DNA of 64,000 nt, taken from Calditrichia bacterium. Its GTDB lineage: Bacteria > Calditrichota > Calditrichia > RBG-13-44-9 > J075. The stretch lies in the NCBI GenBank assembly GCA_050633245.1, contig JBOEGD010000020.1:269712-333711 (forward strand), written 5' to 3'. Each line of letters starts with the position of its first letter. The stretch's first letter is position 1. The notes under the pieces were generated by a model. The model saw only the letters and a program-made list of their open reading frames with translations. It was not told the DNA's origin and did not search any database. Positions 18,209-56,361 of this stretch are shown piece after piece. Position numbers and translations under genes: made by a program.

Positions 18209-19561
18209 ATGAGACCCCTTTTATTCCCCGTTTTGATTTTCTGTTTAGTTTTAGGAATGTTCTCAACAATTGGTTTTTCTCAAGGCAGTGCAAATGTAAC
18301 GCTGCTAAAACAACTTGATGCGTATCAGGGCTACAATGATTGCTGGGGATATACGGCTCCCGATGGTCGTGAGTATGCTCTGCTCGGCGTTCGCAATGGA
18401 ACCAGCATTGTCGATATAACCGATGGTCCTAATTCTGTAGAAGTGGCATTTATCCCGTCAGCAACTTCGACCTGGAAAGACATCAAGACCTACCAGAATT
18501 ACGCTTACACCGTTACGGAATCAAGTACCGATTTGCAGGTAATTGATCTGTCGAATCTACCGACTAGCGCCACTCTGGCAAATACTTACTCTACCGGATT
18601 TAGCACGAATCCGCATAACATCTACATTGATGAAGAAGCCGGGATTCTTTATGGTGCTGAGGACTTCAACTTTGGTCAGTCTATCCGGATGTTTAGTCTT
18701 GCCGATCCGGTAAACCCCGCGCCACTGCATTCTTTTGGGAGTGACTGTCACGATATGTTCGCTCAGGATGGTGTGCTGTATGTTGCTGAAGGAGTCGATG
18801 GAAGCATCGGAATCTTTGATGTAAGCAATACTGCTGTTGTTCCACCGCTGATTAGCCGTATCCCGATTCCTTCTCCCGGTTATGTTCACAATGTCTGGGT
18901 TACAGAGGATAATAATTATATGATGACCACTGAAGAAACCAGTGGTAAGACGGTTAAAATGTGGGATATAAGCGATCCTCTTAACGTTGCACTGGTGGAT
19001 GACTACCTTGGGCCAAATGGTTTGGCACATAATGCACATATTAAAGGTGATTATAGTTATCTCTCACACTATGGTTCGGGGTTGCGAATCGTTAATATTG
19101 CCGATCCTACGAATATTTTTGAAGAAGAATTCTATCAAACTTCCGATGCCTGGGGAGCCTGGCCGTTTTTCGATTCCGGTAAGGTGCTTATCTCTGATAT
19201 TAGCGGTGGCCTTTACGTCACCTTTTATCCCGGCGCTGTAGTTACGCCAACTGGAATTGGTGATGACGATGAAGTCTTGCCTTCCGAGTTTACGGTAAGC
19301 AGTAACTATCCGAATCCATTTAATCCCAGTACTACTATCGATTATTCGCTTGGTACGAACTCCCCCGTATCACTGGAAATTTACAATATTTCAGGTCAGA
19401 AAGTAAAAACGTTAGTAAGTGGTAATCAGGCTGCCGGTTCCTATAAAGCGGTTTGGGATGGAACGGACTTTAGCGGAGAATCCGTTGCGAGCGGAGCTTA
19501 CATATATCGATTTACAGCAAACGATTTTCAAAAGACACAAAAAATGATGTTTATCAAATAA
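18209..19561 (+). CDS. Choice-of-anchor B (LVIVD-repeat) secreted protein with C-terminal FlgD-Ig/T9SS-like domain, paralogue 1
   Basis: DCWGYTAPDGREYALLG, repeated H[ND] motifs, GAWP, NYPNPFNP; start ATG 18209 after AAAGG. Confidence 0.85.
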   Translation: MRPLLFPVLIFCLVLGMFSTIGFSQGSANVTLLKQLDAYQGYNDCWGYTAPDGREYALLGVRNGTSIVDITDGPNSVEVAFIPSATSTWKDIKTYQNYAYTVTESSTDLQVIDLSNLPTSATLANTYSTGFSTNPHNIYIDEEAGILYGAEDFNFGQSIRMFSLADPVNPAPLHSFGSDCHDMFAQDGVLYVAEGVDGSIGIFDVSNTAVVPPLISRIPIPSPGYVHNVWVTEDNNYMMTTEETSGKTVKMWDISDPLNVALVDDYLGPNGLAHNAHIKGDYSYLSHYGSGLRIVNIADPTNIFEEEFYQTSDAWGAWPFFDSGKVLISDISGGLYVTFYPGAVVTPTGIGDDDEVLPSEFTVSSNYPNPFNPSTTIDYSLGTNSPVSLEIYNISGQKVKTLVSGNQAAGSYKAVWDGTDFSGESVASGAYIYRFTANDFQKTQKMMFIK

Positions 19562-22314: not shown

Positions 22315-23073
22315 ATGAACCAATCAACAAAAGGCCTGGTGCTTGTTACCGGTGGTAGTCGTGGTATTGGTGCAGAGACCGCTATGCTTGCCGCTGCCAG
22401 AGGGTACACGGTTTGCGTGAATTTTCACTCAAACAGCAGGGCTGCAGAAAAGGTTGTCTGGCGAATTGAAGAATCAGGGGGCAGTGCAACATCGTTTAAG
22501 GCAGACATCTCTATTGAAGCCGATGTGCTTCGCCTGTTCGAATATACTGATTCGCTTCCCGAATCTCTGGTTGGTTTGGTAAATAATGCCGGTATACTGG
22601 AAACGCAAATGCCACTTGTGGAAATGACCGCCGCGCGTATAGAACGAATTTTTTCTATAAACGTAACGGGTTGCTTTCTTTGTGCTCGTGAAGCGATTAA
22701 ACGTATGAGCGTTAAAAGTGGTGGAAATGGTGGTTCAATTGTGAATATCTCTTCGGTCGCATCCAGAACGGGTTCCCCGCATGAGTATATTGATTATGCT
22801 GCCTCAAAGGGGGCAATCGATACGATGACGATTGGACTCGCAAAGGAGGTCGCTGCTGAAGACATTCGCGTGAACTGTGTGCGCCCCGGGCTAACGCATA
22901 CAGAAATTCACGCCAGTGGTGGTGAAGCGAATCGAATAGAACGATTAAAAGGAAGAATTCCGCTACAGCGAGGTGGCTTGCCGGAAGAGGTTGCTGCTGC
23001 AGTTGTTTGGCTGCTCTCGGAAGAAGCTTCCTACACGACAGGCGCCCTTCTGGATGTAGCAGGAGGACTTTAA
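22315..23073 (+). CDS. SDR oxidoreductase (YgfF-like)
   Basis: TGGSRGIG, NNAG, YAASK, RVNCVRPG. Confidence 0.93.
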   Translation: MNQSTKGLVLVTGGSRGIGAETAMLAAARGYTVCVNFHSNSRAAEKVVWRIEESGGSATSFKADISIEADVLRLFEYTDSLPESLVGLVNNAGILETQMPLVEMTAARIERIFSINVTGCFLCAREAIKRMSVKSGGNGGSIVNISSVASRTGSPHEYIDYAASKGAIDTMTIGLAKEVAAEDIRVNCVRPGLTHTEIHASGGEANRIERLKGRIPLQRGGLPEEVAAAVVWLLSEEASYTTGALLDVAGGL

Positions 23074-23187: not shown

Positions 23188-25662
23188 ATGCGCTCATTAT
23201 CGCAACTAATCTTTGTCTTGCTAATTATTTTTTTAACGCTACCACTTTTTGCTCAAGGTCAGGGTTCACCGAATGTAACGCTTCTCGCGAATGTTGACCA
23301 GTATAGCAGCACCGGATATAATGATATTTGGGGCTATACTGCACCGGATGGCCGTGAGTATGCTTTGTTAGGTGTTCTGAACGGCACCAGCATTATCGAT
23401 ATCACTGATCCCGCGAATACGACCGAGATTAACTTTATCTCGTCTGCTCAATCTACCTGGCGAGACATTAAAACATATCAGACCTACGCGTATGTTGTGA
23501 ATGAAACTAGTGGCGGAATACAAATTATCGACCTATCGGATCTTCCTAACTCTGCTAACTTAATTACCTCATCCAATATTTTATCTGCTTCGCACAATAT
23601 CTATGTCGACGAACCTGCAGGCATTTTGTATTCTGAAGGTGAAAGTGGCTTGGCCGTTCGGATAATTAGTCTTGCCGATCCGGAAAACCCGGTTCAGATT
23701 TCGAGTATATCAGGTCAGTGTCACGATATATATGCACAGGATGGAGTGCTCGTTGTTTCCGAAGGAACGAATGCTTCTTTTGGTTTTTATGATGTTAGTG
23801 ATCCTGCAAACCCTACGCTTATTACACGCTTGAACGTTCCGGCTGGTGGCTATGCTCATAATGCCTGGATGACCGCAGATGGTAACCATATGATGACCAC
23901 TGAAGAAACCGGTGGTAAAACCGTTAAGCATTGGGATATTTCTGATTTCACTAATATAACTTTGGTATCCGAGGTTCTGGCGCCAGATGGTATTGCCCAT
24001 AATGCCCATATTAAACGCGAGTATTCTTATGTGTCGCATTATGGTGATGGTATGCGAATTTATGATGTCTCAGATCCGGCCAATGTAACAGAGGTTGGCT
24101 ATTACGATACCTTCCCGGGACCAGCTGGTGGTTTCGAAGGAAATTGGGGCGCTTATCCATTTCTCACAACGGGAAAAGTGTTAATCTCCGATCGTAGTAC
24201 CGGGCTATATGTCGTGCAGTTTGATGGTGCGATTGACGCCGATTTGCTCGACCCAAAATCGCCGGTTAGTTTAAATGCCTATAGCGATTATACAACCCCA
24301 ACTGGAATGACGCTTACCTGGACAGATCCCGACCAGTTTGTTAATGGTGATCCGCTGCCTTCGTCTGATCTTAGTATCGAGATTTCACGCGACGGCATTA
24401 TGGTTGGAACCGTTGCTGGTGGTACAGAGAGCTTTACTGACGCCGGACTTGTAGATGGACAAAGCTATAGCTACACGGCTTCTGCCCGAGTTATTTCGAA
24501 TGATAGCACAAGTTTTGAGGCGCGGGCAAGCTGGATCGCCGGTGGCTCAAAGATTCCTACAGCACCCACTCTGGTCGGTTTAGATGGCGATGCAAATGGC
24601 ATTACCATAACCTGGCGCAACGCGACAAAAAATATAGACGATACGCCAATGGATGACCTTGCTGAAATTCGTCTGTATCAGGACGGCTTATTTGTTGCCT
24701 CTTTCTCTCAGGCGACAAGCGATAGCGGTGCCACTGTAACCGAATCCTACACACCGGCAACAGCCGGCAACTATGCCTATACAATTACGAGCGTAGATAA
24801 CGAATCTCCGGAAAATGAGAGTGTTGTTTCCAATTCCGCATTTACCCCGCTTTCTGCGCCGTTCTCAGACAATTTTACTACCGCTGGTGTGCCGAACACC
24901 ACTATGTGGATGACCACTAATGTGGATGTAACCAATCGTGCAAGCGGCGAAGTGAGTGCACCGTTCTCGATGACGCTCAATGGAAATCCTGATGGAGAAG
25001 ACATTGTTGAGTCTTTGCCGATCAACCTGGCTGGTCTTGAAAACAATCAGGTAATGATGACCTATTGGTATCAGCCTGCCGGAACCGGTAATGACCCGGA
25101 AGTTCAGGACAGTCTACAGCTCTTCTTCAAAAATGATCAAAATCAGTGGGTTGTTATCAATGCCTATCCCGGTCGCCCATTTCAGGCTTTCCAGGAGGTT
25201 ACGGTCGATCTTGGCACGCTGCCTGCCGATCGTGGTAATATGTTCCACAGCCAGTTCCAGATGCGCTTCCGCAGCCTTGGTTCACAAAGCACGACTCAAT
25301 TCTTCGATGAGTGGTTTATCGATGATCTGAGTCTTGATCTCGGAATTGCTACCGGTATTGATGACGCAATTAGCGGCGTTATCAACGAGTTTAAACTGGA
25401 TGTGAACTTTCCCAATCCGTTTAACCCGTCTACTACGATTAGTTATCAACTGCCGAAGCAGAGCGATGTTTCCCTGACAATTGTCAATACGCTGGGTCAG
25501 AAAGTCCGCACACTTGTAGATGAATCTGTCTCTGCCGGAGCCTATGAAGTTGTCTGGAACGGTTTGAATGATGCAGGTCAGCAAGTGAGTAGCGGTCTTT
25601 ATTTTTATCGCATCGAAGCAGAAGGCTTCACGCAGACGCGTAAGATGATGCTGCTGAAATAA
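23188..25662 (+). CDS. Choice-of-anchor B secreted protein, paralogue 3
   Basis: Same architecture as 19663..22146; NFPNPFNP. Confidence 0.88.
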   Translation: MRSLSQLIFVLLIIFLTLPLFAQGQGSPNVTLLANVDQYSSTGYNDIWGYTAPDGREYALLGVLNGTSIIDITDPANTTEINFISSAQSTWRDIKTYQTYAYVVNETSGGIQIIDLSDLPNSANLITSSNILSASHNIYVDEPAGILYSEGESGLAVRIISLADPENPVQISSISGQCHDIYAQDGVLVVSEGTNASFGFYDVSDPANPTLITRLNVPAGGYAHNAWMTADGNHMMTTEETGGKTVKHWDISDFTNITLVSEVLAPDGIAHNAHIKREYSYVSHYGDGMRIYDVSDPANVTEVGYYDTFPGPAGGFEGNWGAYPFLTTGKVLISDRSTGLYVVQFDGAIDADLLDPKSPVSLNAYSDYTTPTGMTLTWTDPDQFVNGDPLPSSDLSIEISRDGIMVGTVAGGTESFTDAGLVDGQSYSYTASARVISNDSTSFEARASWIAGGSKIPTAPTLVGLDGDANGITITWRNATKNIDDTPMDDLAEIRLYQDGLFVASFSQATSDSGATVTESYTPATAGNYAYTITSVDNESPENESVVSNSAFTPLSAPFSDNFTTAGVPNTTMWMTTNVDVTNRASGEVSAPFSMTLNGNPDGEDIVESLPINLAGLENNQVMMTYWYQPAGTGNDPEVQDSLQLFFKNDQNQWVVINAYPGRPFQAFQEVTVDLGTLPADRGNMFHSQFQMRFRSLGSQSTTQFFDEWFIDDLSLDLGIATGIDDAISGVINEFKLDVNFPNPFNPSTTISYQLPKQSDVSLTIVNTLGQKVRTLVDESVSAGAYEVVWNGLNDAGQQVSSGLYFYRIEAEGFTQTRKMMLLK
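24643..25358 (+). repeat. ~715-bp near-identical intragenic duplication, copy 2
   Basis: Matches 21127-21842. Confidence 0.9.
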
Positions 25663-25765: not shown

Positions 25766-25827
25766 TGTTTGTTGTTGAAAATTGTTTGTTGTTGAAAATT
25801 GTGGCGTGGGTTATAACCCACGCCACA
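25766..25827. repeat. 17-bp tandem duplication (TGTTTGTTGTTGAAAAT x2) abutting a perfect 28-bp REP-like palindrome
   Basis: Duplication at 25766-25782 and 25783-25799; palindrome TGTGGCGTGGGTTA|TAACCCACGCCACA at 25800-25827. Confidence 0.85.
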
Positions 25828-25853
25828 CAATGGTGATTTTATATGGTCTTACG

Positions 25854-26342
25854 ATGAACAAACAATATGGTAAAACCCGGTCATACCGCCGTTGGTATGT
25901 AAATGGCGGATGTTATTTTTTTACGGTTGTAACCGAATTTCGTCGGCCGATTTTAACACGTCCAAATGAAATTTTGGTATTGCGAGATGCGTTTCGTCAT
26001 GTGATGCAACAATATCCGTTTAAAATAGACGCCATTGTTATATTGCCAGACCACCTTCATGCAATTTGGACGATGCCTAATGATTCAAGCAATTTTTCAA
26101 TTCGCTGGCGATTGATAAAAGCTTACTTCACTAAGAATTGTGATCCGTCCCTCAGAGTTTCTACCGGGCGGAGGTCAAAAATTTCCAAGGGAGAGCAAGA
26201 GATCTGGCAACGAAGATTTTGGGAACATCAGATAAAATCAGAGAATGAGCTACAAAATATCATTCGCTATATCCATAACAACCCTGTAAAGCACGGGTAT
26301 GTTTCAGATCCCAGAGATTGGCCATACTCTAGCTATTCTTAA
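25854..26342 (+). mobile_element. REP-associated tyrosine transposase (RAYT, Y1_Tnp/IS200-like HUH)
   Basis: YRR...GGCYFFTVVT, LPDHLHAIW (HUH), WQRRFWEH, YIHNNPVKHG, WPYSS; adjacent REP palindrome. Confidence 0.93.
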
Positions 26343-26363: not shown

Positions 26364-27425
26364 TTAGCAACATCCACCGGGACCGTCATCTGAACTGCCA
26401 GACTCTCCCGGGGCACAATCGAATTCACCATAATGTGTAGAACGATCGCCAATGATGGTAAAATACTTACCAAAGCGAGTTTCTTCAACCATTGCAGCCG
26501 AGTTACCACAGACCAACATTGGCATTCCTGTCTTGAAAAGATGATGATCATCGAGCATAAACTCATGAGGCGAATCTTCTATTCCACCATTATAAAATGC
26601 CACCTGACCAAAGTCTTCACAGATATCCTCCAGGCTGTTCAGCTTGAAAGCGCGGATAGTCATTGAGTAAAAGTCGATCATACCGGCTCGCTTTTCGATC
26701 TCCGGATTGTCCAGCGAAATTTGACGACTGCTTACAACGCGGTAATCCAGACAGCCAATATCTTGAAGCATGCGGCGGAAGTCCTCTACATAGAGCGCTC
26801 CCGAAAGGCACTCACCATACAGAACGGGATCTTCGCGTAGCTCTGTCGGAATCCGTCTTCCGCTAAATACATCAGAGAAATACAGCTCACCGCCCGGCTT
26901 CAACACGCGAAAGATTTCGGCAAATACCTTTTCTTTTACCGGAGACAGGTTTATCACGCAGTTGGAGATAACCACATCCACAGAGTTGTCGGCAATGCCG
27001 AGTGCCGCAAGATCTTCAATGTAGCCGTGATGAAATTCCGTGTTCGGTTTGGAAAATCCAAATGCTTTTGCCTGCTCCTCGCGGTATTTGTTCGCAACCT
27101 GAAGCTGTTCTTCAGTCATATCTACTCCGATAACACGCCCCTTTTCACCAACAAGAGCCGAGGCCAGATACACGTCTCTGCCACTTCCACAACCGAGATC
27201 CAATACCGTCATTCCCTCCAGGGCAAGTGGCATTGGTGAACCGCAGCCGTAAAACTTTTCCATGACCTCATCTGCAATATTAGCAAGAATGGCTTTGTGC
27301 TTTTCAGGCAGGTCTTCAGTTGTACAGCACGCACTGGTTTGCAAGTCATCGGTATTAGCGAGTATCTTGCCATAATAATCTTTTACTACATCATGAGTCT
27401 TTGCATCGAGAGTTATGGTAGCCAT
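26364..27425 (-). CDS. arsM: Arsenite S-adenosylmethionine methyltransferase (AS3MT-like long form)
   Basis: TSACC, FYGCG, LDLGCGSGRD, ISNCVINL, YGECLSGA (the conserved As-binding Cys positions); C-terminal GGCC. Confidence 0.92.
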   Translation of the reverse strand: MATITLDAKTHDVVKDYYGKILANTDDLQTSACCTTEDLPEKHKAILANIADEVMEKFYGCGSPMPLALEGMTVLDLGCGSGRDVYLASALVGEKGRVIGVDMTEEQLQVANKYREEQAKAFGFSKPNTEFHHGYIEDLAALGIADNSVDVVISNCVINLSPVKEKVFAEIFRVLKPGGELYFSDVFSGRRIPTELREDPVLYGECLSGALYVEDFRRMLQDIGCLDYRVVSSRQISLDNPEIEKRAGMIDFYSMTIRAFKLNSLEDICEDFGQVAFYNGGIEDSPHEFMLDDHHLFKTGMPMLVCGNSAAMVEETRFGKYFTIIGDRSTHYGEFDCAPGESGSSDDGPGGCC

Positions 27426-27476
27426 ACATGTTCTCCTCGTAATATTTGATATGTTTTAATTGACAATTTTTGCACC

Positions 27477-28265
27477 TTAATAAACCCCTGTTTTCCTCTC
27501 TTTTGCCGGAAGTACCTCAAGACAGGTTGTCCACCAGCCGGTAAGAACGGTTTCGACAAACTCTTCAGGTAGCCCCTCCGAACGCATTTCGGAAGCTAGG
27601 CGTTGAAAGTCATAGGCAATGGGGATATAAGTAAACTCAGGCGTCTCCTTCAGTTCGAGAAGCATATAACCAACATGCGTTTCGCCATTGTTCTCCGGAC
27701 GACCGATGACCCCGACATTGGCAAAGTGTTTGTCGCTTCGTAAAGACCGCTGCCAATGAATTCCGGTATGGGTTGCGCAGATGATATCAGCCTGATGGTC
27801 ATCGCAAAGCTTGCTGAGGAAATGGTCGGGCGTGGTAGAGTGCCAGAGAAATTCATTCATCTTTCGTGGAGAACCATGGCAAAGTAGAACTCGGTAGTCC
27901 CCCAAAAGGAAGCGTATTTCTTCAGGTAACTCGCGCATCCAGACTTTGTTTGCGTCGCTGGTGTTTGCGAATGTATAGTCATAGCTCAGTTTGGCAAAAT
28001 AGTTGTCGCGCGGGTCGGTATAGCCACATTGACAATCCTCCAGATTGTTTCCGATCGAATTGTCGTAATTTCCTTGAACAACCGGGATGTTATTGTCCAT
28101 CAAGAGCGGGAATACCCGATCTGGATACGGACCAAATGCGCCGAGATCTCCGAGGCAGTAAATGCCATCGACACCGCGGTCTTGTGCATCTCGAATCGTT
28201 TCTTCCAGAGCGAGATAGTTGCTATATACGCCGCCAATGAGAGCTACTTTTTTATGTTCTTTCAA
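27477..28265 (-). CDS. Calcineurin-like metallophosphoesterase with CQCGY insert
   Basis: GGVYSN (variant of DxH), LGDL, GNYD, HGSP, THTG, NVG. Confidence 0.85.
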   Translation of the reverse strand: MKEHKKVALIGGVYSNYLALEETIRDAQDRGVDGIYCLGDLGAFGPYPDRVFPLLMDNNIPVVQGNYDNSIGNNLEDCQCGYTDPRDNYFAKLSYDYTFANTSDANKVWMRELPEEIRFLLGDYRVLLCHGSPRKMNEFLWHSTTPDHFLSKLCDDHQADIICATHTGIHWQRSLRSDKHFANVGVIGRPENNGETHVGYMLLELKETPEFTYIPIAYDFQRLASEMRSEGLPEEFVETVLTGWWTTCLEVLPAKERKTGVY

Positions 28266-28309
28266 TATTGCTACTACCTATTGTTTAGTGCTTGTGTCGC
28301 AATCATGAA

Positions 28310-29269
28310 TTAACCCATGACGCGTTTATCTTGCTGTCCCGCGTCTTGCTCTACTGGACGCGCGTTTTTAAGCGTCTCCTTGCTGCCCATAGTTGCATTC
28401 GTGCATATCGAGCCATAGAGATAGCAGGTATAGCAGGCTTGTTCGCTTAGATTATAGCTCTTGGTGGATTCTTTAAGCGTCTTGCCCATATAGGCGGACG
28501 GTGATTCCAGTAATATGGGGCAAACCACAACACCGCGATTTGTTGCCACACGACTATTTGAGCAAATGAGTTGGCTACAGTCATAATCGACCAACATTTC
28601 AGGCGTGATATGTTCGTAGCTGTCATAGCCACGTGTTCTGGCAATCTCTTTACCGATTTTCAAAGACGGCAAAATCTTTAAACGCGGGCGTTGATATCCG
28701 TGTTCTTTCAGAACGCGGATAAATCCTTCCATGACGGCTTCATCTTCAGTCTCTGCCCACGTTTTGGTTATGGTAATGATGGGAAGAAATCCATGCTCAT
28801 AAAGCAACTTGGTTCCCGCCATGGCTTTTTTAAAAACACCTTCACCGCGAATGGCATCGTTCATTTCTTCGGTGTATCCGTCCATGGAGATTCGCATTTC
28901 CAGCGAATAGCGTGATGCTGCTTCAATTTCCTGAAGGCGTTTGGCGCGCTTTTCTGTGATTAGCATGCCGTTAGAGAGAACCGTTGCCGGGCCATAGGTG
29001 AGTGTTAGTTCCAGAATTTCCAGCATCTGCTTGTTGATGAAGGGCTCTCCTCCGGTGAAGTAATATTCCTTCACACCCAACTCCACGGATTGCTCCAGAT
29101 AGCCATGAACTTCTTCCAGAGTCATAATACCAAAGTTGTGGTTTGTAGGGCTACAGCTGATAAAGCAATGACCGCAAGCAATATTGCAAAGCGTTCCGCT
29201 TACCTGGAACCACAGGTTGTCCAAAGAATCTAAATGCAGATCCGGATGCGCTGTTTGAGTTGCTGACAT
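28310..29269 (-). CDS. Radical SAM protein, ArsS-like
   Basis: CNIACGHC, FTGGEPF, and C-terminal Cys motifs (LICS, VCP, CYTC..GSIC) in the layout of ArsS; next to arsM. Confidence 0.8.
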   Translation of the reverse strand: MSATQTAHPDLHLDSLDNLWFQVSGTLCNIACGHCFISCSPTNHNFGIMTLEEVHGYLEQSVELGVKEYYFTGGEPFINKQMLEILELTLTYGPATVLSNGMLITEKRAKRLQEIEAASRYSLEMRISMDGYTEEMNDAIRGEGVFKKAMAGTKLLYEHGFLPIITITKTWAETEDEAVMEGFIRVLKEHGYQRPRLKILPSLKIGKEIARTRGYDSYEHITPEMLVDYDCSQLICSNSRVATNRGVVVCPILLESPSAYMGKTLKESTKSYNLSEQACYTCYLYGSICTNATMGSKETLKNARPVEQDAGQQDKRVMG

Positions 29270-29291
29270 TATTTGTTCCTTACACTTAAAA

Positions 29292-30533
29292 TTACATGGT
29301 TAGCGACTGATGTTCGACATCCCGATATAGGTCCAGGGCAGAGTCTTCCTTGATGAGTTGGAAAACATCGCGAATTTGCTCATGACCAATGCGAAGCAAA
29401 AAGTTTGGACTCTTTCCATAGCTCTTCATGCCAATAATGTAAAAGTTGGGTTCAGGGTTCTTTAAGACCTCCGCACCCTTACTGGTCTGCGCCAGACAAT
29501 CTTCTGAAGAATCTCCAAGTAGTGCAGCAGCCAGGCTCATTGGTCCGCGCGAAGCATAGCATTCATGAATTTGCAGCTCGCTGTATAAAGAGTTGTCAGG
29601 AGAGTGGCCAACACAGGCCAGGATTTGATCGGCTTCAATGCTCTGAAAGGAATCTCCCTGACGAATTTCTACCGTAAACGAGGTGTCAGTCTTCTTTTGA
29701 ATAGACTGTATCAGTGCACCTGAGATTCGGGTAACGGCTGCAGACTGTGCGACCCGATTCGCTCGGTCAATAATACGAGTACGCTCCTGTAGTGGATCAC
29801 TTTCGATTGTTGAGAACGGGGGAGTATTATCGCTGCGCGTTATCCAGATTAGTCGGCTACCAGGCGCTGTTGCGCACAGATCCTCGAAGTTTGCCAGCGT
29901 TGTTGCCGCACTGTGTCCATTGCCAATCAGCAACATCGTTTTGTTCGCATATTGCTTGGCATTTGCTTTAAAGTTTGCGATTCCATACTCTATCGAGCTT
30001 TGTAGGCCTTGCTCGCCAATGGCAGGAATCCCGCCTTCACCAAGCCAGTTTGCATTTGAGAAAGTGCCGCTGCAGTCTAAAACCACGTCGGCAGTCTCGA
30101 CAAACTCATTGCCGTCTTCCTTGCGCAATAATAAGCGGAATGGAAAGGTTGCTCTGGCCGGATCACCAATCATATCGCGTTTCATCTGCGTGCTTCGTGC
30201 GACACTGATTACCTCAACACCGGAATGAATGAGGTCTTTTATAGCCGGGGTATCAGCCAGTGGAAGTAAATATTTATTGCGAAACTCATTTCCGCTTAGA
30301 TATGAATCATCATCTGGTAATGTATGATTGGTCTGGCTTAAGTATTCTCGACCAAGCGTGGAGGCGTTCATCTTGAATGGGGAGAAGAATGTGACGTGTT
30401 GCCACTGTTTTATGTGGTTTGCAACGGATGCCTTTTCGAAAACGCTCACCTTATATCCAAGGTGGGTTGCATAAAGCGCTGCTTCCAATCCGATCGGACC
30501 TGCGCCGATAATTGCGATGTGTTTCGTGTCCAT
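29292..30533 (-). CDS. FAD/NAD(P)-dependent oxidoreductase (flavin monooxygenase-like, ArsO/ArsV-type superfamily)
   Basis: IIGAGPIGL FAD motif, IGNGHSA NAD(P) motif, ELQIHECYAS, EPNFYIIGMKSYG; start ATG 30533. Confidence 0.85.
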   Translation of the reverse strand: MDTKHIAIIGAGPIGLEAALYATHLGYKVSVFEKASVANHIKQWQHVTFFSPFKMNASTLGREYLSQTNHTLPDDDSYLSGNEFRNKYLLPLADTPAIKDLIHSGVEVISVARSTQMKRDMIGDPARATFPFRLLLRKEDGNEFVETADVVLDCSGTFSNANWLGEGGIPAIGEQGLQSSIEYGIANFKANAKQYANKTMLLIGNGHSAATTLANFEDLCATAPGSRLIWITRSDNTPPFSTIESDPLQERTRIIDRANRVAQSAAVTRISGALIQSIQKKTDTSFTVEIRQGDSFQSIEADQILACVGHSPDNSLYSELQIHECYASRGPMSLAAALLGDSSEDCLAQTSKGAEVLKNPEPNFYIIGMKSYGKSPNFLLRIGHEQIRDVFQLIKEDSALDLYRDVEHQSLTM

Positions 30534-30641
30534 CGTTTCCCTCTTTGGTTTTAGACAGGGCATGCTGAACCGCATGGATGTAACCCATCGGTCGAGCAGA
30601 AGGAGTCTCTGTCGAGATTTAACTTGTGTTGTGATCGTATT

Positions 30642-31457
30642 TTAGCGCTGGGCTACGGGAGGGGGAAGCTGAAAAAGATGTGTAAACTCCAGCTGTTGCG
30701 GAATAATGTTGCGGTGCGATCTATCGCTTATAAAGGCTGGTAGTTTCAACGAATTTAAAAGTGTTGCCAGTTGCGAAATTAGAGATGCTGTCTTGTTATG
30801 CGCCTTTTGAAACCAGCGTTTTAAGTCCGAAGAGTTGTCAATGTCCTGTAGGGAAGGTAGCAGAAATATGTTGTGTCTGGCGCGTTTTAAATTCTCAAGA
30901 AGCGTGGAACTTACGCTGTTTGTGCCCCAGGAAAGATTGTCAAAAAGAGATCTCGAAAAACTGGAGAGACCAAGCAGGTAAAAGCCGCCATCACATGAAT
31001 TGCCTAAAACGCTATGACCACACTTCAGCTGTTCGAATGTGTCTATCAAATGACTCGCCGACAAATCGAGACAGTCATTACCGATAATCGCAACATGTTT
31101 ATAGCCCTTGGAAAATCCTGAGCTGAGAGCGGATGATATATTTGTATTGAAATTTGACCCCGAGTGAGCAATGAAATCAAACGGTAGCGGGTGTTCACAT
31201 GAATCGTTTATTTTCTGAAGAGCGGTAAGATCAGACGCATCTGATGCGATTATTAAATCGAATGGAGAAAGAGCCTGTGCTTCTGAAATTGTTTTAAAGA
31301 GGTGCTGTAAAAAATAGCGATAAACAACCAGTTGGGAATGGGCATTTTTCGTCAAGCGTTTCTGCCGCGCGTCCTTTAACGGATCGCGTGTTAGTAGAAC
31401 CAGTGCGTTAGAACAAGACTTCTGTGATTTTAAGGGTTTCATTTCCTGCTGCTTCAT
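30642..31457 (-). CDS. DUF2064 (TIGR04282/CofC-like) transferase
   Basis: IIGNDC, LGNSCDGGFYLLGL, LSWGT, LQDIDNSSDL. Confidence 0.85.
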   Translation of the reverse strand: MKQQEMKPLKSQKSCSNALVLLTRDPLKDARQKRLTKNAHSQLVVYRYFLQHLFKTISEAQALSPFDLIIASDASDLTALQKINDSCEHPLPFDFIAHSGSNFNTNISSALSSGFSKGYKHVAIIGNDCLDLSASHLIDTFEQLKCGHSVLGNSCDGGFYLLGLSSFSRSLFDNLSWGTNSVSSTLLENLKRARHNIFLLPSLQDIDNSSDLKRWFQKAHNKTASLISQLATLLNSLKLPAFISDRSHRNIIPQQLEFTHLFQLPPPVAQR

Positions 31458-31567
31458 TGTTACGGTTGCTTAGTATAACTTACATAAGAATCGTCATTAA
31501 AGTTCTCACGAAACTGTAACATTTTTGTGCATACACTGATCTTTTTTTGAAGTCCAAGGTGGATAAT

Positions 31568-32326
31568 TTACTTCTTATCCAATTCAGATCGGATGTCGGA
31601 GAGATTCTGTTCGAATTGTCGCTTGGTCTTAAAATGCCAATCGAAGGCTGATGAGAAGATTGTAACCAAGATAATTGTGCCGGCACCAATAACCCCTTTG
31701 AGCGTGCCGGAAATTTTTGACTTTCCTATTCGTTTGCGATAGCGAACCGGAACTTCCAGTTCTCGAACCCCACGTTGGGCAGCTTTGATTTGCATCTCGA
31801 CTGTCCAGCCATAGGTTTGATCCTTCATGTTCAGGGAATTTAACGCCGAGAGCGTTATTGCGCGGAAGGGGCCAAGATCTGTATATCGAACTCCCCAAAA
31901 CAGCCGCATGAGTTTGCAGGAGAGCCAGTTACCAAATATCGCCTGTGGGGTTAATGCACCTTTTTCAGAATCACCTGCAACGCGCGAGCCGATGACCATT
32001 TCGAACTTCCCTGATAAAATAGGATCGACCAGCAAGTCCATCTCTTCCGGGTAATCGCTGTAGTCGCCATCCAGAAAAACCACGATGTCTGTTTCTTCCT
32101 GAAGTGCTTCAATGCCGGCAAGACAGGCAGAGCCGTATCCGCGCAGGTTTTCTGAAATTACGCGCGCTTTGTGGGCACGTGCAACCTGAGCCGTATTGTC
32201 CGTAGAGCCGTTGTCTACAACAATAACATCGTCTACATAATGTGGAATATCGCTGATAACCTTACCGATAGACTGTTCTTCATTCAAAACGGGGATGATG
32301 ACTGAAATTCGCAAGTCGTTCTTCAT
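31568..32326 (-). CDS. GT2 glycosyltransferase (polyprenol-phosphate glycosyltransferase-like)
   Basis: IIPVLNEE, VDNGSTD, FLDGD, TDLGPFRA, GKSKISGT. Confidence 0.92.
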   Translation of the reverse strand: MKNDLRISVIIPVLNEEQSIGKVISDIPHYVDDVIVVDNGSTDNTAQVARAHKARVISENLRGYGSACLAGIEALQEETDIVVFLDGDYSDYPEEMDLLVDPILSGKFEMVIGSRVAGDSEKGALTPQAIFGNWLSCKLMRLFWGVRYTDLGPFRAITLSALNSLNMKDQTYGWTVEMQIKAAQRGVRELEVPVRYRKRIGKSKISGTLKGVIGAGTIILVTIFSSAFDWHFKTKRQFEQNLSDIRSELDKK

Positions 32327-33776
32327 ATCCTTCTGCTACCTCCGTTGGTGTGGCAGTTAACGATTGCCGATTCAGCCTCCATTCATATATAAATACGAGC
32401 CAAACAGGTACAAATTCAACCCAAACAACCCACTGACTAAAGATGTCTGTACGACCCATAAGGTTGTAGCAATGCCATAAATAATACAGCGGCATTAGTG
32501 CAGTCAGCATAAATAATGATCGGCGTTGATAAAGCACAAGAAGAGGGACTATCCAGATTGCATACCATGGGAATTGTGTTGGACTTAGCATGAAAATAGC
32601 CGTAACAACCATCAGGCAGCGTCTTATAAGCTCCTGCTTTTTTCCAGGATGAGAAAAACTATACCAGGAAATCAGTGCCAGACAAAGTAGTGCAACCAGG
32701 CCTCTGGCGCTCTGTTGAGCGTATAGATGAGCGAAACCTTCCCGCAAATCGAATAGGTTAAAGAACACATCAAATGCGGAAAAGATCATTAAGAATAATG
32801 AATCATTAAGCTGCCAGCGTTGGCTATAGGCGTTTAAGCCGGAGCCAGAGTCCAGGCCAGTGGCATAAATGGGCCAGAAGAAGAGTGCCGTAAGCGTCAG
32901 CGTAATGCTGAGAGCAATAAATAATTTCAGGGGTTGTCTCAGCCAGGGGCGAAAAAGTATGGGGAACAGGGCCAGCGGCCAAATCTTTATTGCGCCTGCA
33001 AATGCGATAAATATGCTCGCCCAAAGCGGTCGATTTTGAAATACCAATAGCAGAGCCGCTAATAAGAAAGGAAATATAAGCAAGTCCATGTGGGCAGAAT
33101 TGAATATCTCTTTTATAAGAAGCGGATTCAGCCAATAAGCGGCAAGCCAAAGCGGTGAAAGACTCAGATGCGCTAACAGCTTAAACAACAGGAATGTCGT
33201 TATCACATCCATTAACAGGAGAACAATTTTCCATGCGGTAATGCTCCACGGAAAAATCCAGTGTGCCAGTGCAAAGAAAAACTGCGTGACTGGTGGATAG
33301 ATCGTACGCAAATAAGAATGATTAATCTCGTTCAGGTGAGCGGAACCGGATTTTTTAACCTTGCTAAACCCATCATTGGGTACCGTGTTCTTTATCGCAT
33401 CAGGAGAGTGGGAATATGGATTTAAGCCATTTGCTGTTACTGCACCATCCCATAAATAGCGATGATAGTCATCTTCCAAAATCGGCGTAGAGGTGATTGC
33501 CGCCAGCCTCATAATTATGCCAAGAAAAAGAACCCATAGGAGAACCTGTTTTTTGGCAGGTGTGTGTACGATGCCCTCAATAAGAAATAAATAGGCCATT
33601 CCGGCGAGCACCATTAGAAAAACAAAGTGTTCATACGGATATTCAGTGGCAGGGATATCCATGCTGAAAGCGGGGCTAAGTTGAATGGCGGAGAAAAAAA
33701 ATCCCAATAAAAATAGTCCACCAAGGAACCATCTTATCGGGATTTTAAAAGACTTTAGATCGATGCTTCTAAACAT
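32280..33776 (-). CDS. Polytopic GT-C fold glycosyltransferase (GT87/DUF2029-like)
   Basis: EDDYHRYLWDG, TIYPP, WLNPLLIKE, HMD, PWY; many TM helices. Confidence 0.85.
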   Translation of the reverse strand: MFRSIDLKSFKIPIRWFLGGLFLLGFFFSAIQLSPAFSMDIPATEYPYEHFVFLMVLAGMAYLFLIEGIVHTPAKKQVLLWVLFLGIIMRLAAITSTPILEDDYHRYLWDGAVTANGLNPYSHSPDAIKNTVPNDGFSKVKKSGSAHLNEINHSYLRTIYPPVTQFFFALAHWIFPWSITAWKIVLLLMDVITTFLLFKLLAHLSLSPLWLAAYWLNPLLIKEIFNSAHMDLLIFPFLLAALLLVFQNRPLWASIFIAFAGAIKIWPLALFPILFRPWLRQPLKLFIALSITLTLTALFFWPIYATGLDSGSGLNAYSQRWQLNDSLFLMIFSAFDVFFNLFDLREGFAHLYAQQSARGLVALLCLALISWYSFSHPGKKQELIRRCLMVVTAIFMLSPTQFPWYAIWIVPLLVLYQRRSLFMLTALMPLYYLWHCYNLMGRTDIFSQWVVWVEFVPVWLVFIYEWRLNRQSLTATPTEVAEGYEERLANFSHHPRFE

Positions 33777-33812
33777 TTGAACAGGTGTATCCTTTTCAAA
33801 GACTTGTAGACT

Positions 33813-35261
33813 TTATCGCTGTCCGGAAAATGAGGAGATTGCGATATAATAAAAGCCGAATTGAAACAGCAGAAAAAATGGTGCAGAATAGTATATTTCC
33901 TGCGAAATAAAATAGTACCAACCATAGGTAAAGTAGCTGGCTATCATAAATTCAAAGATATGCTGATAATTCTTACCGGGTCGATAAAGTTTTTTGCGCC
34001 AACTTCCTTTTTTGCCTTCAAGCTTGAACTTCGGCGTGCGAATGAAGTCGCTTTTGTAGCCTAGTAATGCTTCCAATGCCGCCTTACCGTTGTTGAAAGA
34101 CAACCCGATTCCAAAAGCCATTAACAGTGGCAAATAAAGCACGTGTGGCCAAAGTTTGCCAAGTGAATCGCGAATCGCAACGCTATAATAAATCAGAATG
34201 GAAATGGTTGCGGCAAAGAAGACCATAAAATAAACGAACACCAACTTCCACGGAACATCGCCCATCGCAAGCTGCGTTTTTAATACCGGCACCAGTAATA
34301 GCGCCGGAATGGCCATCAATAAATAGGCGAAGTTATTGGAGAGGTGAATAATCGCTTCAACACGGATATAAAACGGATGATCAGACTGCCAAATACGCTT
34401 CATTAGCTTAAGAGCGGTTTGCACCGAACCTTTTGCCCAGCGATGCTGCTGGCCTTTATAGGCATTCATTTCTGCAGGAAGTTCAGCCGGTGAAACCACA
34501 TTTGGCAGATAGCGAAACTTCCAGCCAACAATCTGTGCACGATAGCTAAGATCGAGATCTTCAGTGAGGGTGTCATGTTGCCAGCCACCCGCATCGCTAA
34601 TGGCTTGCTTACGCCAAACGCCTGCCGTTCCGTTAAAGTTAAAAAATCGACCAGAGCGATTTCGGGCAAGATGCTCAATAATGAAATGCGCATCAAGAAA
34701 GATCGCCTGCAGCTTAGTCAGCAGAGAGTAATTGCGGTTAATATGACCCCAGCGCGTTTGCACCATGCCTATTCCCGGCTGCATGAGATGAGGAATAGTT
34801 TTACGCAAAAAGTCGCTGTTCGGTACAAAATCCGCATCAAAGACTGCTACAAACTCGGCATCGGTATGCTTCAGTCCATAAGCAAGTGCGCCTGCTTTGA
34901 AGCCCACGCGATTACTGCGCCTGACATGGTCGACTCGCCAACCCTTCTTCTGAAGCGTTTCAACGAGTTTTGCAGACAACCGAACGGTGCTGTCAGTAGA
35001 GTCATCAAGCAATTGGATATGCAGCTTATCTTTTGGATAGTCCATGCAAATGACTGTCTTGAGGAGTCGCTTTACGACGTATTTTTCATTGTAAATGGGA
35101 AGCTGAACCGCTACCTCCGGCCATTCTTCTGGCTCATCAATCTGAGGTTCGGGGTGGCGTTTGTACTGTCGGTACATATACAGTAGGTGGTACTTGTGAA
35201 TTCCGAAAAGACCCAGAATCACCAGGGCAAATATATATATGCCAAATAAGAAGTTATCCAA
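33813..35261 (-). CDS. Cellulose-synthase-like processive GT2 (CslA-like)
   Basis: QLPIYNE, DDSTD, KAGAL, FDADF, TEDLDLS, QQHRW (QxxRW), C-terminal TMs; TTG start. Confidence 0.93.
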   Translation of the reverse strand: MDNFLFGIYIFALVILGLFGIHKYHLLYMYRQYKRHPEPQIDEPEEWPEVAVQLPIYNEKYVVKRLLKTVICMDYPKDKLHIQLLDDSTDSTVRLSAKLVETLQKKGWRVDHVRRSNRVGFKAGALAYGLKHTDAEFVAVFDADFVPNSDFLRKTIPHLMQPGIGMVQTRWGHINRNYSLLTKLQAIFLDAHFIIEHLARNRSGRFFNFNGTAGVWRKQAISDAGGWQHDTLTEDLDLSYRAQIVGWKFRYLPNVVSPAELPAEMNAYKGQQHRWAKGSVQTALKLMKRIWQSDHPFYIRVEAIIHLSNNFAYLLMAIPALLLVPVLKTQLAMGDVPWKLVFVYFMVFFAATISILIYYSVAIRDSLGKLWPHVLYLPLLMAFGIGLSFNNGKAALEALLGYKSDFIRTPKFKLEGKKGSWRKKLYRPGKNYQHIFEFMIASYFTYGWYYFISQEIYYSAPFFLLFQFGFYYIAISSFSGQR

Positions 35262-35558: not shown

Positions 35559-37499
35559 ATGCTGGCAATTTATAAATTCAGTTTTCAAGAGAATGAAACT
35601 CCGCAAATACGGTCGGAGCATATTGAGCATGTCGGGAAAAATCTGTCTGCTCATTTCAATACGCGCGAGTGGGTACACTGGACGTCAGGCCCAACCCTAT
35701 ATGTTTTTTTAGTCCATCAATCTGGTGAAGAGATAAGTGCTGCTAAAGTTTGCAAGGCGTTTGAAGACGAGTTGCCGTGTCAGCCTTTAGCGTCCGAGTT
35801 CTACTCAGGAGAGGCTGCTGTAGAGCATTTTTTAGAGGTGGCTTCCGGAATTGCTCATGGATTATATGGCCGAGCGCATTTAGAGGCTTTGCAGGAAAGT
35901 TATCAGAATGCTACAGGACGTGGTACTATCGGCCCGATTATGCATCATCTGTTTCAGCGAGGTATTTTGCTGCACGAGCAAGTGCGACAGGATACCGACT
36001 TCTTTCGTCTGGCGGTAAACTCTGAGGCTGCACTATACGAGCTTTCTGCTAAGGTACTTGCCTTAAGCGAAGGCAGTCGTGTTTTGTCAATTGGGGATAT
36101 AGAACCCGCATTGCCATTTTTCCATTTTTTGCGTGGCAGGGGAATACGTCACCTACAGGCTGTCAGCGATACAGAGGCACCTGAGCAATTGCCTGACTTT
36201 ATTACCTTTAAGATGTCTAAGTATGTTCAGCCAATCTCCGCTGATGAAAGTGTGCTACTCCTCTTTCCCTCAACAGCTCTTCAGATCTCGGATGCGCAGC
36301 TAATCGAGCTGGCGAAAACCCGTAAGAAACCTCTGCTGGTGTTCGACCTTACCAATACTGCGCGAAACCTGCGTAGTCTACGCCGCCAGGCAATGCTCTA
36401 TTTTAATACTGAAGACGACCTGAAGGCCGTTATCTCTTCAAATTTAAACGGGAGAAAACAGACGACTCGCGAGATTTCACGCTGGATATCACTCGAGCGC
36501 GAGCAATTCTTCCAGTGGCTTGCCAGCGATGAGCGTTTTGAATTTGCCGGTATTGTCGGTTCTACGCCGGCAATGCAGCAAGTGTTTGAACTCATCTCTC
36601 GTATTGCCCGTACCGATATAACGGTGCTGATAGACGGGGAAAGCGGAACGGGTAAGGAGCGGGTTGCACGTGCGATTCACTCCCTTAGCGGACGCTCTGA
36701 ACGCCCATTTCAAGTTCTTAATTGCGGTGCGATTCCGGAGAACCTTCTTGAGAGTGAACTGTTTGGGCACGAAAAAGGTGCCTTTACCGGAGCTGTTGTC
36801 CAAAAACGCGGTCTATTTGAGGAAGCCGATGGCGGTACGTTGCTACTCGATGAAATTGGTGAATTACCTGCTCATCTTCAGGTAAAGCTGCTGCGCTTTC
36901 TACAGGAAGGGGAAATTAAGCATGTCGGCAGCAATGAAACTCGTAAAGTTGATGTGCGAATTGTTGCGGCAACCAACCAGGATCTTGCTGCCATGGTGGC
37001 CAAGCAGACCTTTCGTAGTGATTTGTATTATCGGTTAAATGTGTTGCAGCTTACCGTGCCTCCACTGCGAAAGCGCAAGGAGGATGTGCTGTTGTTGGCC
37101 GAGCATTTTCGCCGCCGTTTCTCCCAAAAGCTGCATAAGTCGGTCAACTCAATTTCCGACGAGGCCTTACGCGTGCTGCAGCATTACAGTTGGCCGGGAA
37201 ACGTGCGCGAACTGGAAAATGCTATTGAACGCGCAGTTGCTCTCGCACTTGGGGAACAAATACTTGCTGTAAATCTGCCTCAAATTGTGCAGAGCCCGCC
37301 AGTTGCCGGTGCGGCAATGAGCGATATTCCATTCCGTGGTAAGCAGCTTACGCTGAAAGAACTGGAAAGGGAATATATTTTAGCAACGCTGGAACAGTTC
37401 GATTGGAATTATGATGAGGTCTGCAAGAAGTTGGCTATTGGACGTACGACTCTATGGCGAAAGCTGCGCGAATATAATGTAATTCCGCCATCCTCATAA
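35559..37499 (+). CDS. Sigma-54 enhancer-binding protein with an N-terminal degenerate glutamyl-tRNA reductase (HemA)-like domain
   Basis: AAA+ ([28 protein letters not shown]) and Fis HTH; N-terminal ~325 aa align by eye to HemA ([57 protein letters not shown]). Confidence 0.85.
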
Positions 37500-37666: not shown

Positions 37667-37682
37667 TGGCACAGCAATTGTT
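37667..37682 (+). promoter_or_regulatory. Candidate sigma-54 (-24/-12) promoter
   Basis: TGGCAC-AGCAA-TTGTT, about 70 bp upstream of the lipoprotein start. Confidence 0.65.
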
Positions 37683-37749: not shown

Positions 37750-38241
37750 ATGAAACGCAATACCCTCACTTTTCTCTTCATGTTTTTACTTTTTGGTCTT
37801 TTTACTTTATCCTGCAGTGATGATAGTCCTACTGAAGTCCCTGAGTTTGGTAGCATTTCCGGAACTGTATCCTTTACCGGAACCTGGCCCGCAGCCGGCG
37901 ATATTCAGGTTTCTATCTACGCGCCGTTGACACCTCCATACGTTCCTACCGGAGCTCCGCTGGCTTTTACGGATCCGATAGCTTCCGGTGTAAACACATA
38001 TGACTTCAACTTTGAAGGGTTGGAAAAAACTGAATATGGCGCTATCTTTGTGAGCTGGCGCGATCCTGCAAACCCTGCAGCCTCCAAGCTATTGGGTATG
38101 TACTGGACAGATGCGACGGATGCCGGAATTAATGTTCAAACCGGACTTCCGACAGCCCAGCCATCTACAATTACCATTGATGATGATAATATTGACGTGA
38201 CCGGTGCGAATCTAACTGCGAATTTAGATCTGGCACAATAA
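37750..38241 (+). CDS. Hypothetical lipoprotein
   Basis: Lipobox TLSC followed by SDDSPT; GSISGTV beta-sandwich-like start; AGGAG RBS. Confidence 0.85.
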   Translation: MKRNTLTFLFMFLLFGLFTLSCSDDSPTEVPEFGSISGTVSFTGTWPAAGDIQVSIYAPLTPPYVPTGAPLAFTDPIASGVNTYDFNFEGLEKTEYGAIFVSWRDPANPAASKLLGMYWTDATDAGINVQTGLPTAQPSTITIDDDNIDVTGANLTANLDLAQ

Positions 38242-38271: not shown

Positions 38272-38340
38272 GACGAGATCGTTCATGCCAAACGTGCCGA
38301 TGCCCCTGGCGGCATGGCCGATCTCGTCGACGATTTTTTT
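38272..38340 (+). terminator. Long intergenic hairpin plus T run between lipoprotein and TonB receptor (attenuator or stabiliser)
   Basis: GACGAGATCG..CATGCC pairs with GGCATG..CGATCTCGTC; T7 at 38334-38340. Confidence 0.5.
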
Positions 38341-38353
38341 GGATACCCCACTC

Positions 38354-56356: not shown

Positions 56357-56361
56357 TCGCC

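Follow-up and report, generated by a model that had tools for sequence, protein, structure and literature searches.

A compact radical-SAM family and its metallophosphoesterase-fold partner in a candidate organoarsenic gene cluster of a Calditrichia bacterium

Only two routes by which radical S-adenosylmethionine (SAM) enzymes form arsenic-carbon bonds surfaced in our literature search, those of ArsS (arsenosugars) and ArsL (arsinothricin). In the Synechocystis arsenosugar pathway, the ArsS gene stands beside that of ArsM, the As(III) SAM methyltransferase, with DUF2064/TIGR04282-type and GT2 glycosyltransferase genes nearby; ArsL of the Burkholderia gladioli arsQML genes likewise works with ArsM. 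How the synthesis of arsenosugars and arsenolipids continues after its first steps, and what its anoxic sources are, is poorly defined. ArsS is reported, in a passage of PMC8552651 citing earlier work, to transfer a 5'-deoxyadenosyl group to dimethylarsenite, and passages of the same source describe BgArsL as a 428-aa protein with its CX3CX2C motif at residues 194-201 and only three conserved cysteines, and four conserved cysteines as required in ArsM. Here we analyse a 64,000-nucleotide stretch (hereafter the window) of a Calditrichia bacterium (contig JBOEGD010000020.1, positions 269,712 to 333,711), in which an eight-gene cluster (26364-35261, minus strand) combines a radical-SAM gene with arsM. 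A first-pass annotation had read this cluster as an operon for organoarsenic biosynthesis with an ArsS-like enzyme. We find instead that its core is a radical-SAM enzyme of a compact, unnamed family (g6) paired with a metallophosphoesterase (MPE)-fold protein (g7), and we hold with middling confidence that the cluster makes organic arsenic, with g7 reducing arsenate, g8 (ArsM) methylating arsenic and g6 forming an As-C bond.

All eight genes were recovered as head-to-tail minus-strand open reading frames (ORFs), g1 to g8, tightly spaced as first described: the successive intergenic distances are 36 nt, a 47-nt overlap, and 110, 66, 22, 44 and 51 nt. They encode a membrane GT2 resembling processive beta-glycan synthases (g1, 33813-35261, 482 aa), a GT87-like protein of the GT-C fold (g2, 32280-33776, 498 aa), a GT2 of the polyprenyl/dolichyl-phosphate hexose synthase type that overlaps g2 (g3, 31568-32326, 252 aa), a DUF2064 protein with the nucleotide-diphospho-sugar-transferase fold, TIGR04282-like (g4, 30642-31457, 271 aa), an FAD/NAD(P)H oxidoreductase of an unnamed family (g5, 29292-30575, 427 aa), a twitch/SPASM-type radical-SAM enzyme, also of an unnamed family, which forms the core of the system (g6, 28310-29269, 319 aa), a Car1-like protein of the MPE fold, predicted to be a partner subunit of g6 (g7, 27477-28265, 262 aa), and a long-form ArsM ending in a CC pair (g8, 26364-27425, 353 aa). 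Seven of the eight original domain calls (GT2, GT-C/GT87, polyprenol-phosphate-type GT2, DUF2064, oxidoreductase, MPE and ArsM) were thus upheld by Pfam, NCBIfam or PDB matches. On the minus strand from the first to the last gene, a terminator scan found only four weak stems of 5 pairs, all within ORFs, and in the window scan the numbers of internal terminators and promoters did not exceed those of shuffled sequence.

The eighth call, an ArsS-like radical-SAM enzyme, did not hold. The g6 protein has a CX3CX2C motif (C28/C32/C35) and five further invariant cysteines (C236, C250, C279, C282 and C289), and PF04055 is its only Pfam domain at E<=0.001. Compared with the ArsS hidden Markov model TIGR04167, it reached 54.6 bits against a cut-off of 300 and aligned through the N-terminal core alone (model positions 5-148 of 303); the Pfam scan at the same threshold detected no ArsS-type Cys-rich C-terminal domain, which we take to be DUF3641. 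An ArsL-like architecture was also rejected, since a 319-aa protein with its motif at residues 28-35 and five extra cysteines departs from that of BgArsL as described in passages of PMC8552651. The N-terminal core and Cys-rich C-terminal part of g6 rather recall the twitch/SPASM enzymes (SkfB, BlsE, CteB, MoaA) and the Rv1681 family. Its best PDB sequence matches were SkfB (43.4 bits) and BlsE (41.4 bits), along with CteB and viperins, and its best NCBIfam model was that of the Rv1681 family (100.8 bits, cut-off 380); these matches are nevertheless confined to the core and far below cut-offs, and none of the proteins has a known arsenic link. The C-terminal cysteines are present, yet no SPASM domain was detected by Pfam and the C-terminus of the AlphaFold2 (AF2) model has a predicted local distance difference test (pLDDT) score below 50.

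A profile search of 1.84 billion representative proteins retrieved 170 clusters at E<=1e-30 against 5119 at 1e-10 and, judging from these matches, g6 is a member of a compact, unnamed, twitch/SPASM-type radical-SAM family. By their names, the nearest homologues of g6 assign the window to Calditrichota. Source names of these homologues were all generic, as were the Protein Atlas entries for g6 and g5, one of which revealed a fusion of radical-SAM and MPE domains. In the literature covered, largely outside subscription journals, we found no description of the g6 family, of its MPE pairing or of its ArsM fusions; searches for Rv1681/moeX surfaced only diagnostic-marker papers. A lead towards ladderane lipids, provided by a fusion protein of Kuenenia, was dropped after the literature gave nothing relevant. 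On plasmid pHP-187 of Marinobacter adhaerens HP15 (our locus L085), positions 9001-9871 contain a g6 relative (27.6% identity) that matches in two pieces and has no gene in the PLSDB table, from which pseudogenes are omitted, which makes a pseudogene probable. The gene after it encodes a sodium:solute symporter, recalling the transporter partner found in Ignavibacteria-type loci.

Scanning species-representative genomes with g6 yielded 386 relatives, of which the best 80 loci were fetched with flanks of up to 10 kb; partners were counted by tblastn with the window proteins, and all locus ORFs were also clustered. Of the 70 loci with 900 bp or more downstream, 66 had an MPE gene, which in 64 was the next gene after the radical-SAM gene. 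The g5-type oxidoreductase was found upstream of the radical-SAM gene in 33 of the 73 loci with room for it, g4 homologues in 17 of the 80 loci, always on the radical-SAM strand, and ArsM in nine (all five from Acidobacteriota, two of ten from Calditrichia, one from Verrucomicrobiota and the unlabelled L035). With the exception of one MPE and one GT-C, partner matches lay on the same strand as the radical-SAM gene. From these counts, the eight-gene unit of the first-pass annotation is not conserved, whereas the radical-SAM/MPE pair is. By its pattern of conservation the cluster is made of three layers: a core (g6 and g7), frequent partners (g5, g8 and g4), and a lineage-specific addition (g1-g3). 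Carriers of the system, mostly anaerobic or sediment bacteria, fall under nine or more phylum-level labels: Calditrichota, Ignavibacteriota, Planctomycetota, Acidobacteriota, Latescibacterota, Gemmatimonadota, Verrucomicrobiota, Nitrospinota and Balneolota.

Several genes recur in related loci without a counterpart in the window. These encode a Porin_O_P-like protein (15 loci), a membrane protein of 457 aa that weakly matches sodium/solute symporters (26 loci), phosphate transporters of the PHO4 type that adjoin ArsM in L009 and L035 (214 bits), and thiol-redox proteins. Close Calditrichia relatives have one of two arrangements behind the MPE gene, either ArsM (the window and L001) or the Porin_O_P-like gene with the 457-aa transporter-like gene (L003 and L006); in the tree, these arrangements alternate among sister taxa. 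The ORFs scanned in the operon runs of the 80 loci, namely 80 out of 91 selected together with representatives of clusters, included neither ArsR nor an efflux gene (acr3, arsB or arsP). The g5 protein itself matches Pfam Pyr_redox_3/2, with GxGxxG, a second Rossmann motif and C339/C360 conserved. In three Calditrichaceae loci (L005, L007 and L008), a gene for a subtilase (S8) of ~783 aa with a type IX secretion system (T9SS) tail lies between the oxidoreductase and radical-SAM genes.

The near-constant partner of g6 also provided a connection with arsenic. The g7 protein matches Pfam Metallophos_2 (39.7 bits, gathering threshold 27), and its AF2 model (pLDDT 87.4) has as nearest fold the Ap4A hydrolase/phosphodiesterase SapH (3qfn; template modelling score 0.77-0.81). 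We searched annotated plasmids for g7 relatives by tblastn (40 records, 26-34% identity, E down to 1e-35) and inspected nine. All six inspected matches of at least 124 bits lay in ArsR-headed ars operons with acr3, arsM or arsC, spread over Bacteroidota, Bacillota and Actinomycetota: arsR-DUF6428-MPE-acr3 in Pontibacter, arsR-MPE-arsM in Paraclostridium, arsC-arsM-arsR-arsH-MPE-arsC in Rubrobacter, and operons of comparable make-up in Mucilaginibacter, Hymenobacter and Adhaeribacter. The weaker matches lay outside an ars context (107 and 77 bits) or in the Roseomonas cluster described below (82 bits). Elsewhere, the protein family that includes g7 is one of arsenic operons. Passages of PMC12124457 put the identity of the Paraclostridium ars-operon MPE with Car1, an As(V) reductase from Rufibacter tibetensis, at ~40% and state that it possesses the Cys74/Cys76 pair essential to Car1. 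In our alignment the P. bifermentans plasmid MPE has cysteines at 74 and 76, which correspond to C78/C80 of g7, and all six aligned MPE proteins share a GNYD motif. The first-pass annotation had reported no arsR, arsC, acr3, arsB or arsP; this stands at the level of protein families, as no ArsR, ArsC, ACR3, ArsB or ArsP was detected among the scanned ORFs of the window. Nevertheless, since g7 is related to an MPE-fold arsenate reductase, an arsenate reductase function may be present in the cluster after all.

The radical-SAM-linked MPEs also have traits of their own. Metallophosphoesterases carry a canonical ligand set consisting of D-x-H, GD, GNH[D/E], H and GH-x-H. In the g7 family, GGVYSN replaces D-x-H (motif I), which the three aligned ars-operon MPEs keep (SDIHAN, SDIHSN and SDVHSN); the family also has GNY for GNH, while g7 retains D40, N66, H130 and H166, so that its dinuclear metal-ligand set is incomplete. 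C37, C78, C80, C248 and Y14 are invariant in 48 of 48 radical-SAM-linked MPEs, which end in a conserved tail (GWWTTCLE.LP.KER). The predicted g6-g7 complex reached an ipSAE of 0.91, as compared with 0.42 for the best of three controls, with contact agreement of at least 64% between runs and partner pLDDT of at least 94; this mark was attained by 116 of 157 solved complexes and 2 of 215 mismatched pairs, a calibration that holds only roughly because we used our own alignments. In the model, the g7 tail (contacts at residues 250-258) and residues 141-149 form the putative g6 interface, facing g6 residues 62-68, 92-94, 120-124, 160-162 and 194-196. Taken with the neighbourhood counts, this points to a conserved pair whose products probably are in physical contact. 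Although GNYD and the CxC pair are common to g7 and the Car1/ars-operon MPEs, which frequently adjoin arsM, g7 differs from them in its motif I, its tail and its setting, outside ArsR control, without an adjoining efflux pump, and next to a radical-SAM gene and ArsM.

The g8 protein is a well-supported ArsM, scoring 357.8 bits (E 5.6e-106, residues 12-340) with the Chlamydomonas ArsM structure 5evj and ~332.8 bits with CmArsM (4kw7/4fr0), and C33/C34, C61, C156 and C206 sit in motifs shared with 5evj, confirming the intact cysteine set noted earlier. It falls below the NCBIfam PRK11873 cut-off (207.6 vs 263 bits), a subfamily model of only 272 positions. ArsM is also physically joined to the g6 family. 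Among 41 long g6 homologues (>559 aa), 19 are fused to an ArsM-type domain, 12 to an N-terminal g5-type FAD oxidoreductase (36-47% identical to g5, including P0128, missed by Pfam), eight to a g7-type MPE (including P0137) and two to GT domains. NCBIfam confirmed the fused ArsM domains, with scores reaching 249 bits on PRK11873 and 377 bits on NF040538; the fused domains occur in either order, and the ArsM cysteine set is kept in 19/19 fused and 4/4 adjacent ArsMs examined, with the C-terminal CC aligning in all 19 fused proteins. Some fused and Acidobacteriota ArsMs score best on the arsinothricin-type model NF040538 (335-377 bits, under its cut-off of 500); the window cluster itself, in contrast with arsQML, lacks an ArsQ-type permease. 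A quick IQ-TREE phylogeny of 106 radical-SAM domain sequences indicated at least three origins of the ArsM fusion and at least four changes of ArsM adjacency; it left out 8 of 81 sources (radical-SAM ORF unclustered or fewer than 230 profile positions covered) and 8 of the 41 fused proteins (fewer than 230 positions covered).

A comparable search with g7 gave 165 long matches, the best 120 of which were nearly all MPE-radical-SAM fusions of ~560 aa, many of them actinobacterial. In that of Micromonospora nigra, identity to g7 is 46% for the MPE half and identity to g6 is 26% for the radical-SAM half, which scores 251.9 bits on the Rv1681-family model (cut-off 380). In three further proteins (P0156, P0158 and P0159), ArsM is joined to different radical-SAM enzymes of the SPASM type, whose match to the g6 profile is limited to the N-terminal core (NirJ/AhbD-like by NCBIfam in P0156, the one of the three checked), and the ArsM-radical-SAM fusion theme is therefore wider than the g6 family. 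Convergent with arsM in the window, 21 nt past its stop codon, is a gene for a REP (repetitive extragenic palindromic)-associated tyrosine transposase (25782-26342, plus strand; NF047646 194.4 bits, cut-off 80). Its 5' end contains a perfect 28-nt palindrome (25800-25827) and adjoins a tandem 17-nt repeat (25766-25799); a search for REP elements around the two genes gave short repeats only.

Of the sugar-transfer proteins, g1 matches Pfam Glyco_trans_2_3 (84.4 bits) and, far under cut-offs, the CelA domain (128.7) and PgaC (124.3) models of NCBIfam; g2 matches GT87 (PF09594) at 30.7 bits (gathering 25) over model positions 2-236 of 237; and g3 matches PF00535 (78.9 bits), its nearest NCBIfam model being AglJ (141.2 bits, cut-off 325). 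Homologues of g1 accompany the radical-SAM gene in 5 of 80 loci, all from Calditrichia, those of g2 in seven (five Calditrichia, one Ignavibacteria-type and one unlabelled) and those of g3 in nine (five Calditrichia and four Ignavibacteria-type), and the full GT trio in five, again restricted to Calditrichia. The g4 protein matches Pfam DUF2064 (PF09837) at 74.4 bits (gathering 25.8) and the PDB entry 3cgx at 60.1 bits. Measured against the two 'arsenosugar biosynthesis glycosyltransferase' models, g4 narrowly misses TIGR04282, at 113.2 bits across the full model (cut-off 134), and g3 misses TIGR04283, the GT2 model, at 48.2 bits (cut-off 182). True members do occur in related loci. In a Melioribacteraceae locus (L032), a GT2-DUF2064 fusion passes both TIGR04282 (202.5/134) and TIGR04283 (191.7/182) in the company of DUF547, a porin, a transporter, the radical-SAM gene, MPE and a g3-type GT2. 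Plasmid p546-1 of the cultured Roseomonas haemaphysalidis 546 encodes a TIGR04282 protein (185.2/134), DUF547, a radical-SAM protein of 459 aa, a relative of g6 (30% identity), an ABC importer of the Phn type and MPE, with DUF547, two FAD oxidoreductases and a GT2 on the opposite strand. The recurrence of DUF2064/TIGR04282-type and polyprenol-phosphate GT2/GT-C genes beside the same radical-SAM gene in other lineages agrees with this part of the first-pass annotation. In the comparison with ArsS systems, an obligatory MPE-fold partner and a frequent oxidoreductase partner are features of the g6 loci examined.

A sigma-70-like promoter match precedes g1 (35568-35540, minus strand; TTGCCA-17-TATAGT plus TG, 10/12, a match to the consensus only). 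A gene for a sigma-54 enhancer-binding protein diverges from the cluster (35559-37499, plus strand; Sigma54_activat 245.5 bits) and is kept in that position beside the GT trio in three Calditrichia loci (L002, L003 and L006). Its residues 1-320 belong to no confident family, with only a weak GlutR_N match (27.8 bits). Matches to the -24/-12 consensus over the whole window were at chance level (34 observed, 34.9 expected). The best one nearby (37667-37682, plus strand; TGGCAC-N5-TTGT, one mismatch) lies just 3' of the activator gene and 68 nt before an ORF of 163 aa without family (37750-38241), which is followed by a TonB-dependent receptor gene (38285-40621); from its position, the activator may control the ORF and the receptor gene, not the GT operon.

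Together, these data suggest how the cluster might work. Arsenate could enter by phosphate-type transporters such as those encoded in related loci, for which the window has no counterpart. From arsenate reduction onward, we infer from sequence a succession of reduction, electron supply, methylation, As-C bond formation and carrier loading. The g7 protein would reduce As(V) to As(III) on its CxC pair, or bind arsenic there, and g5 would pass electrons derived from NAD(P)H to g7, to the [4Fe-4S] cluster of g6, or to both. Arsenic would be methylated by g8, and g6 would attach a carbon group to trivalent arsenic by means of a SAM-derived radical, in a manner analogous to that of the non-orthologous ArsS and ArsL. 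Finally, g4 and g1-g3 may load the product onto a sugar or polyprenyl-phosphate carrier.

A number of observations weigh against this organoarsenic synthesis. ArsM was not found in the fetched flanks of 71 of the 80 loci, including all 33 from Planctomycetota and all 24 of Ignavibacteria type, and it is missing from the nearest relatives of the cluster (L002, L003 and L006), where L003 and L006 have the porin and transporter genes in its place. The first-pass annotation had itself named two outcomes that would tell against it, and, formally, both were obtained: the radical-SAM enzyme stands apart from ArsS, and homologous clusters are mostly without arsM. The loss of motif I suggests that the radical-SAM-linked MPEs may bind arsenic instead of reducing it, and the Car1 evidence is second-hand, g7 being tied to Car1 only via the Paraclostridium MPE, as portrayed in passages of PMC12124457. 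The AF2 model of g6, built from 12 sequences, had a pLDDT of 59 with the C-terminus unmodelled, and was left out of the fold search. Other points concern the context: the GT trio is lineage-restricted and set off from g4 by the largest gap of the cluster (110 nt); neighbours in related loci bear selenium-flavoured names (SelL-related, TIGR03169 'Nterm_to_SelD' and TrsS-like); MPE-radical-SAM fusions are common in Actinobacteria (the 165 long matches), where they were seen as proteins only; neither ArsR nor another arsenic-responsive regulator was found among the scanned window ORFs; and no -24/-12 site within two mismatches lies 5' of g1. The arsenic reading survives nonetheless, on the strength of the radical-SAM/ArsM fusions and the kinship of g7 with ars-operon MPEs and Car1. 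Within it, the presence of importers instead of efflux pumps and the absence of ArsR favour biosynthesis or transformation over efflux resistance: as the first-pass annotation held, the cluster is arsenic-linked, and it resembles uptake and transformation more than classical efflux resistance.

Some room, if not much, is left for an unconventional detoxification in which g7 reduces arsenate, g8 turns arsenite into methylated species that are less toxic or volatile, as in the ArsR-MPE-ArsM operons, g5 recycles thiols and g6 is an auxiliary redox or maturation partner of g7 that forms no As-C bond, the GT genes being unrelated. The MPE-ArsM neighbourhood is, indeed, shared by resistance operons of Paraclostridium, Adhaeribacter and Rubrobacter; passages of PMC12124457 state that As(V) is methylated by Paraclostridium dentum IIB4, which with two other strains carries that MPE gene in its ars operon; and the complete GT trio does not extend beyond Calditrichia. 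However, the scanned ORFs of the window and of the operon runs of the 80 loci contained no ArsR or efflux gene, the related loci bear importers instead (PHO4, Porin_O_P and Phn-type ABC), and an enzyme whose gene adjoins MPE in 64 of 70 loci and that was fused to ArsM at least three times is hardly a mere accessory.

There is also a rather small chance that the juxtaposition is accidental, with a core devoted to chemistry other than that of arsenic (cofactors, lipids, selenium or antimony) and ArsM newly inserted in the window genome. The scarcity of ArsM in related loci, closest relatives included, the transposase gene adjoining arsM, the selenium-named neighbours and the reach of the MPE-radical-SAM fusion family into Actinobacteria would all fit such an accident. 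It accounts poorly, however, for the adjacency of ArsM in Calditrichia, Acidobacteriota and Verrucomicrobiota loci and its three or more independent fusions, for an MPE partner whose family is that of ars operons and whose CxC pair is retained, and for the retention of C33/C34, C61, C156 and C206 in every one of the fused ArsM domains. Very improbable, finally, is a g6 that breaks As-C bonds, as the ArsI lyase does, but anaerobically and in methylated or complex organoarsenicals taken up by the cell, with ArsM re-methylating or buffering the products: in close Calditrichia relatives, the 3' end of the operon does hold porin and SSS-like (sodium/solute symporter) transporter genes in alternation with ArsM, and our literature search showed no anaerobic C-As lyase, but a methylase-demethylase fusion would be counter-intuitive, and TIGR04282/TIGR04283 and GT genes suggest building rather than degrading.

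Returning to organoarsenic synthesis, a bolder version of it, which we regard as unlikely, would have the g6-g7 pair constitute a third, independent route to As-C bonds, with an arsenic-glycolipid or envelope-glycan product in Calditrichia. The g7 protein would then, and this too is doubtful, take up arsenate, reduce it at the CxC pair and pass As(III) straight to the bound g6; just as tentatively, g4 and g3 would load the product onto polyprenyl phosphate, and the GT-C protein g2 would transfer it outside the cytoplasm. The arseno-glycolipid or arsenosugar-modified envelope product proposed in the first-pass annotation is likewise purely conjectural.

Outside the cluster, the window is ordinary chromosome (rho, prfA, prmC, RNase R, uppS and folC). 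Beyond the transposase gene lie three plus-strand genes for 'choice-of-anchor B' surface proteins (18086-19561, 19663-22146 and 23188-25662), one of them with a confirmed T9SS tail. The two long ones, with a short-chain dehydrogenase/reductase gene between them (22315-23073), are 71% identical overall and near-identical over residues ~490-720, which suggests recent gene conversion. Two further features are unrelated to the cluster, an ordinary alginate lyase with a T9SS sorting tail (61982-63292, minus strand) and a fatty-acid beta-oxidation trio (acyl-CoA dehydrogenase, thiolase and 3-hydroxyacyl-CoA dehydrogenase; 53261-58755, plus strand).

Organoarsenical chemistry by a radical-SAM enzyme together with ArsM is of a known kind; the radical-SAM family and its reductase-like partner are new. 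The work defines a compact unnamed radical-SAM family that natural fusions of three kinds connect with ArsM, with a dedicated flavoprotein and with a protein resembling an arsenate reductase. The resulting four-gene module is directly testable, and homologous or related systems have cultured carriers in Thalassoglobus neptunius KOR42 (L075), Roseomonas haemaphysalidis and Micromonospora nigra. If the unlikely third route to As-C bonds proved true, non-phototrophic bacteria would be a hidden source of arsenosugars or arsenolipids in anoxic sediments. A function for the module would provide the first functional lead for hundreds of proteins annotated as 'radical SAM protein' and 'metallophosphoesterase family protein'.

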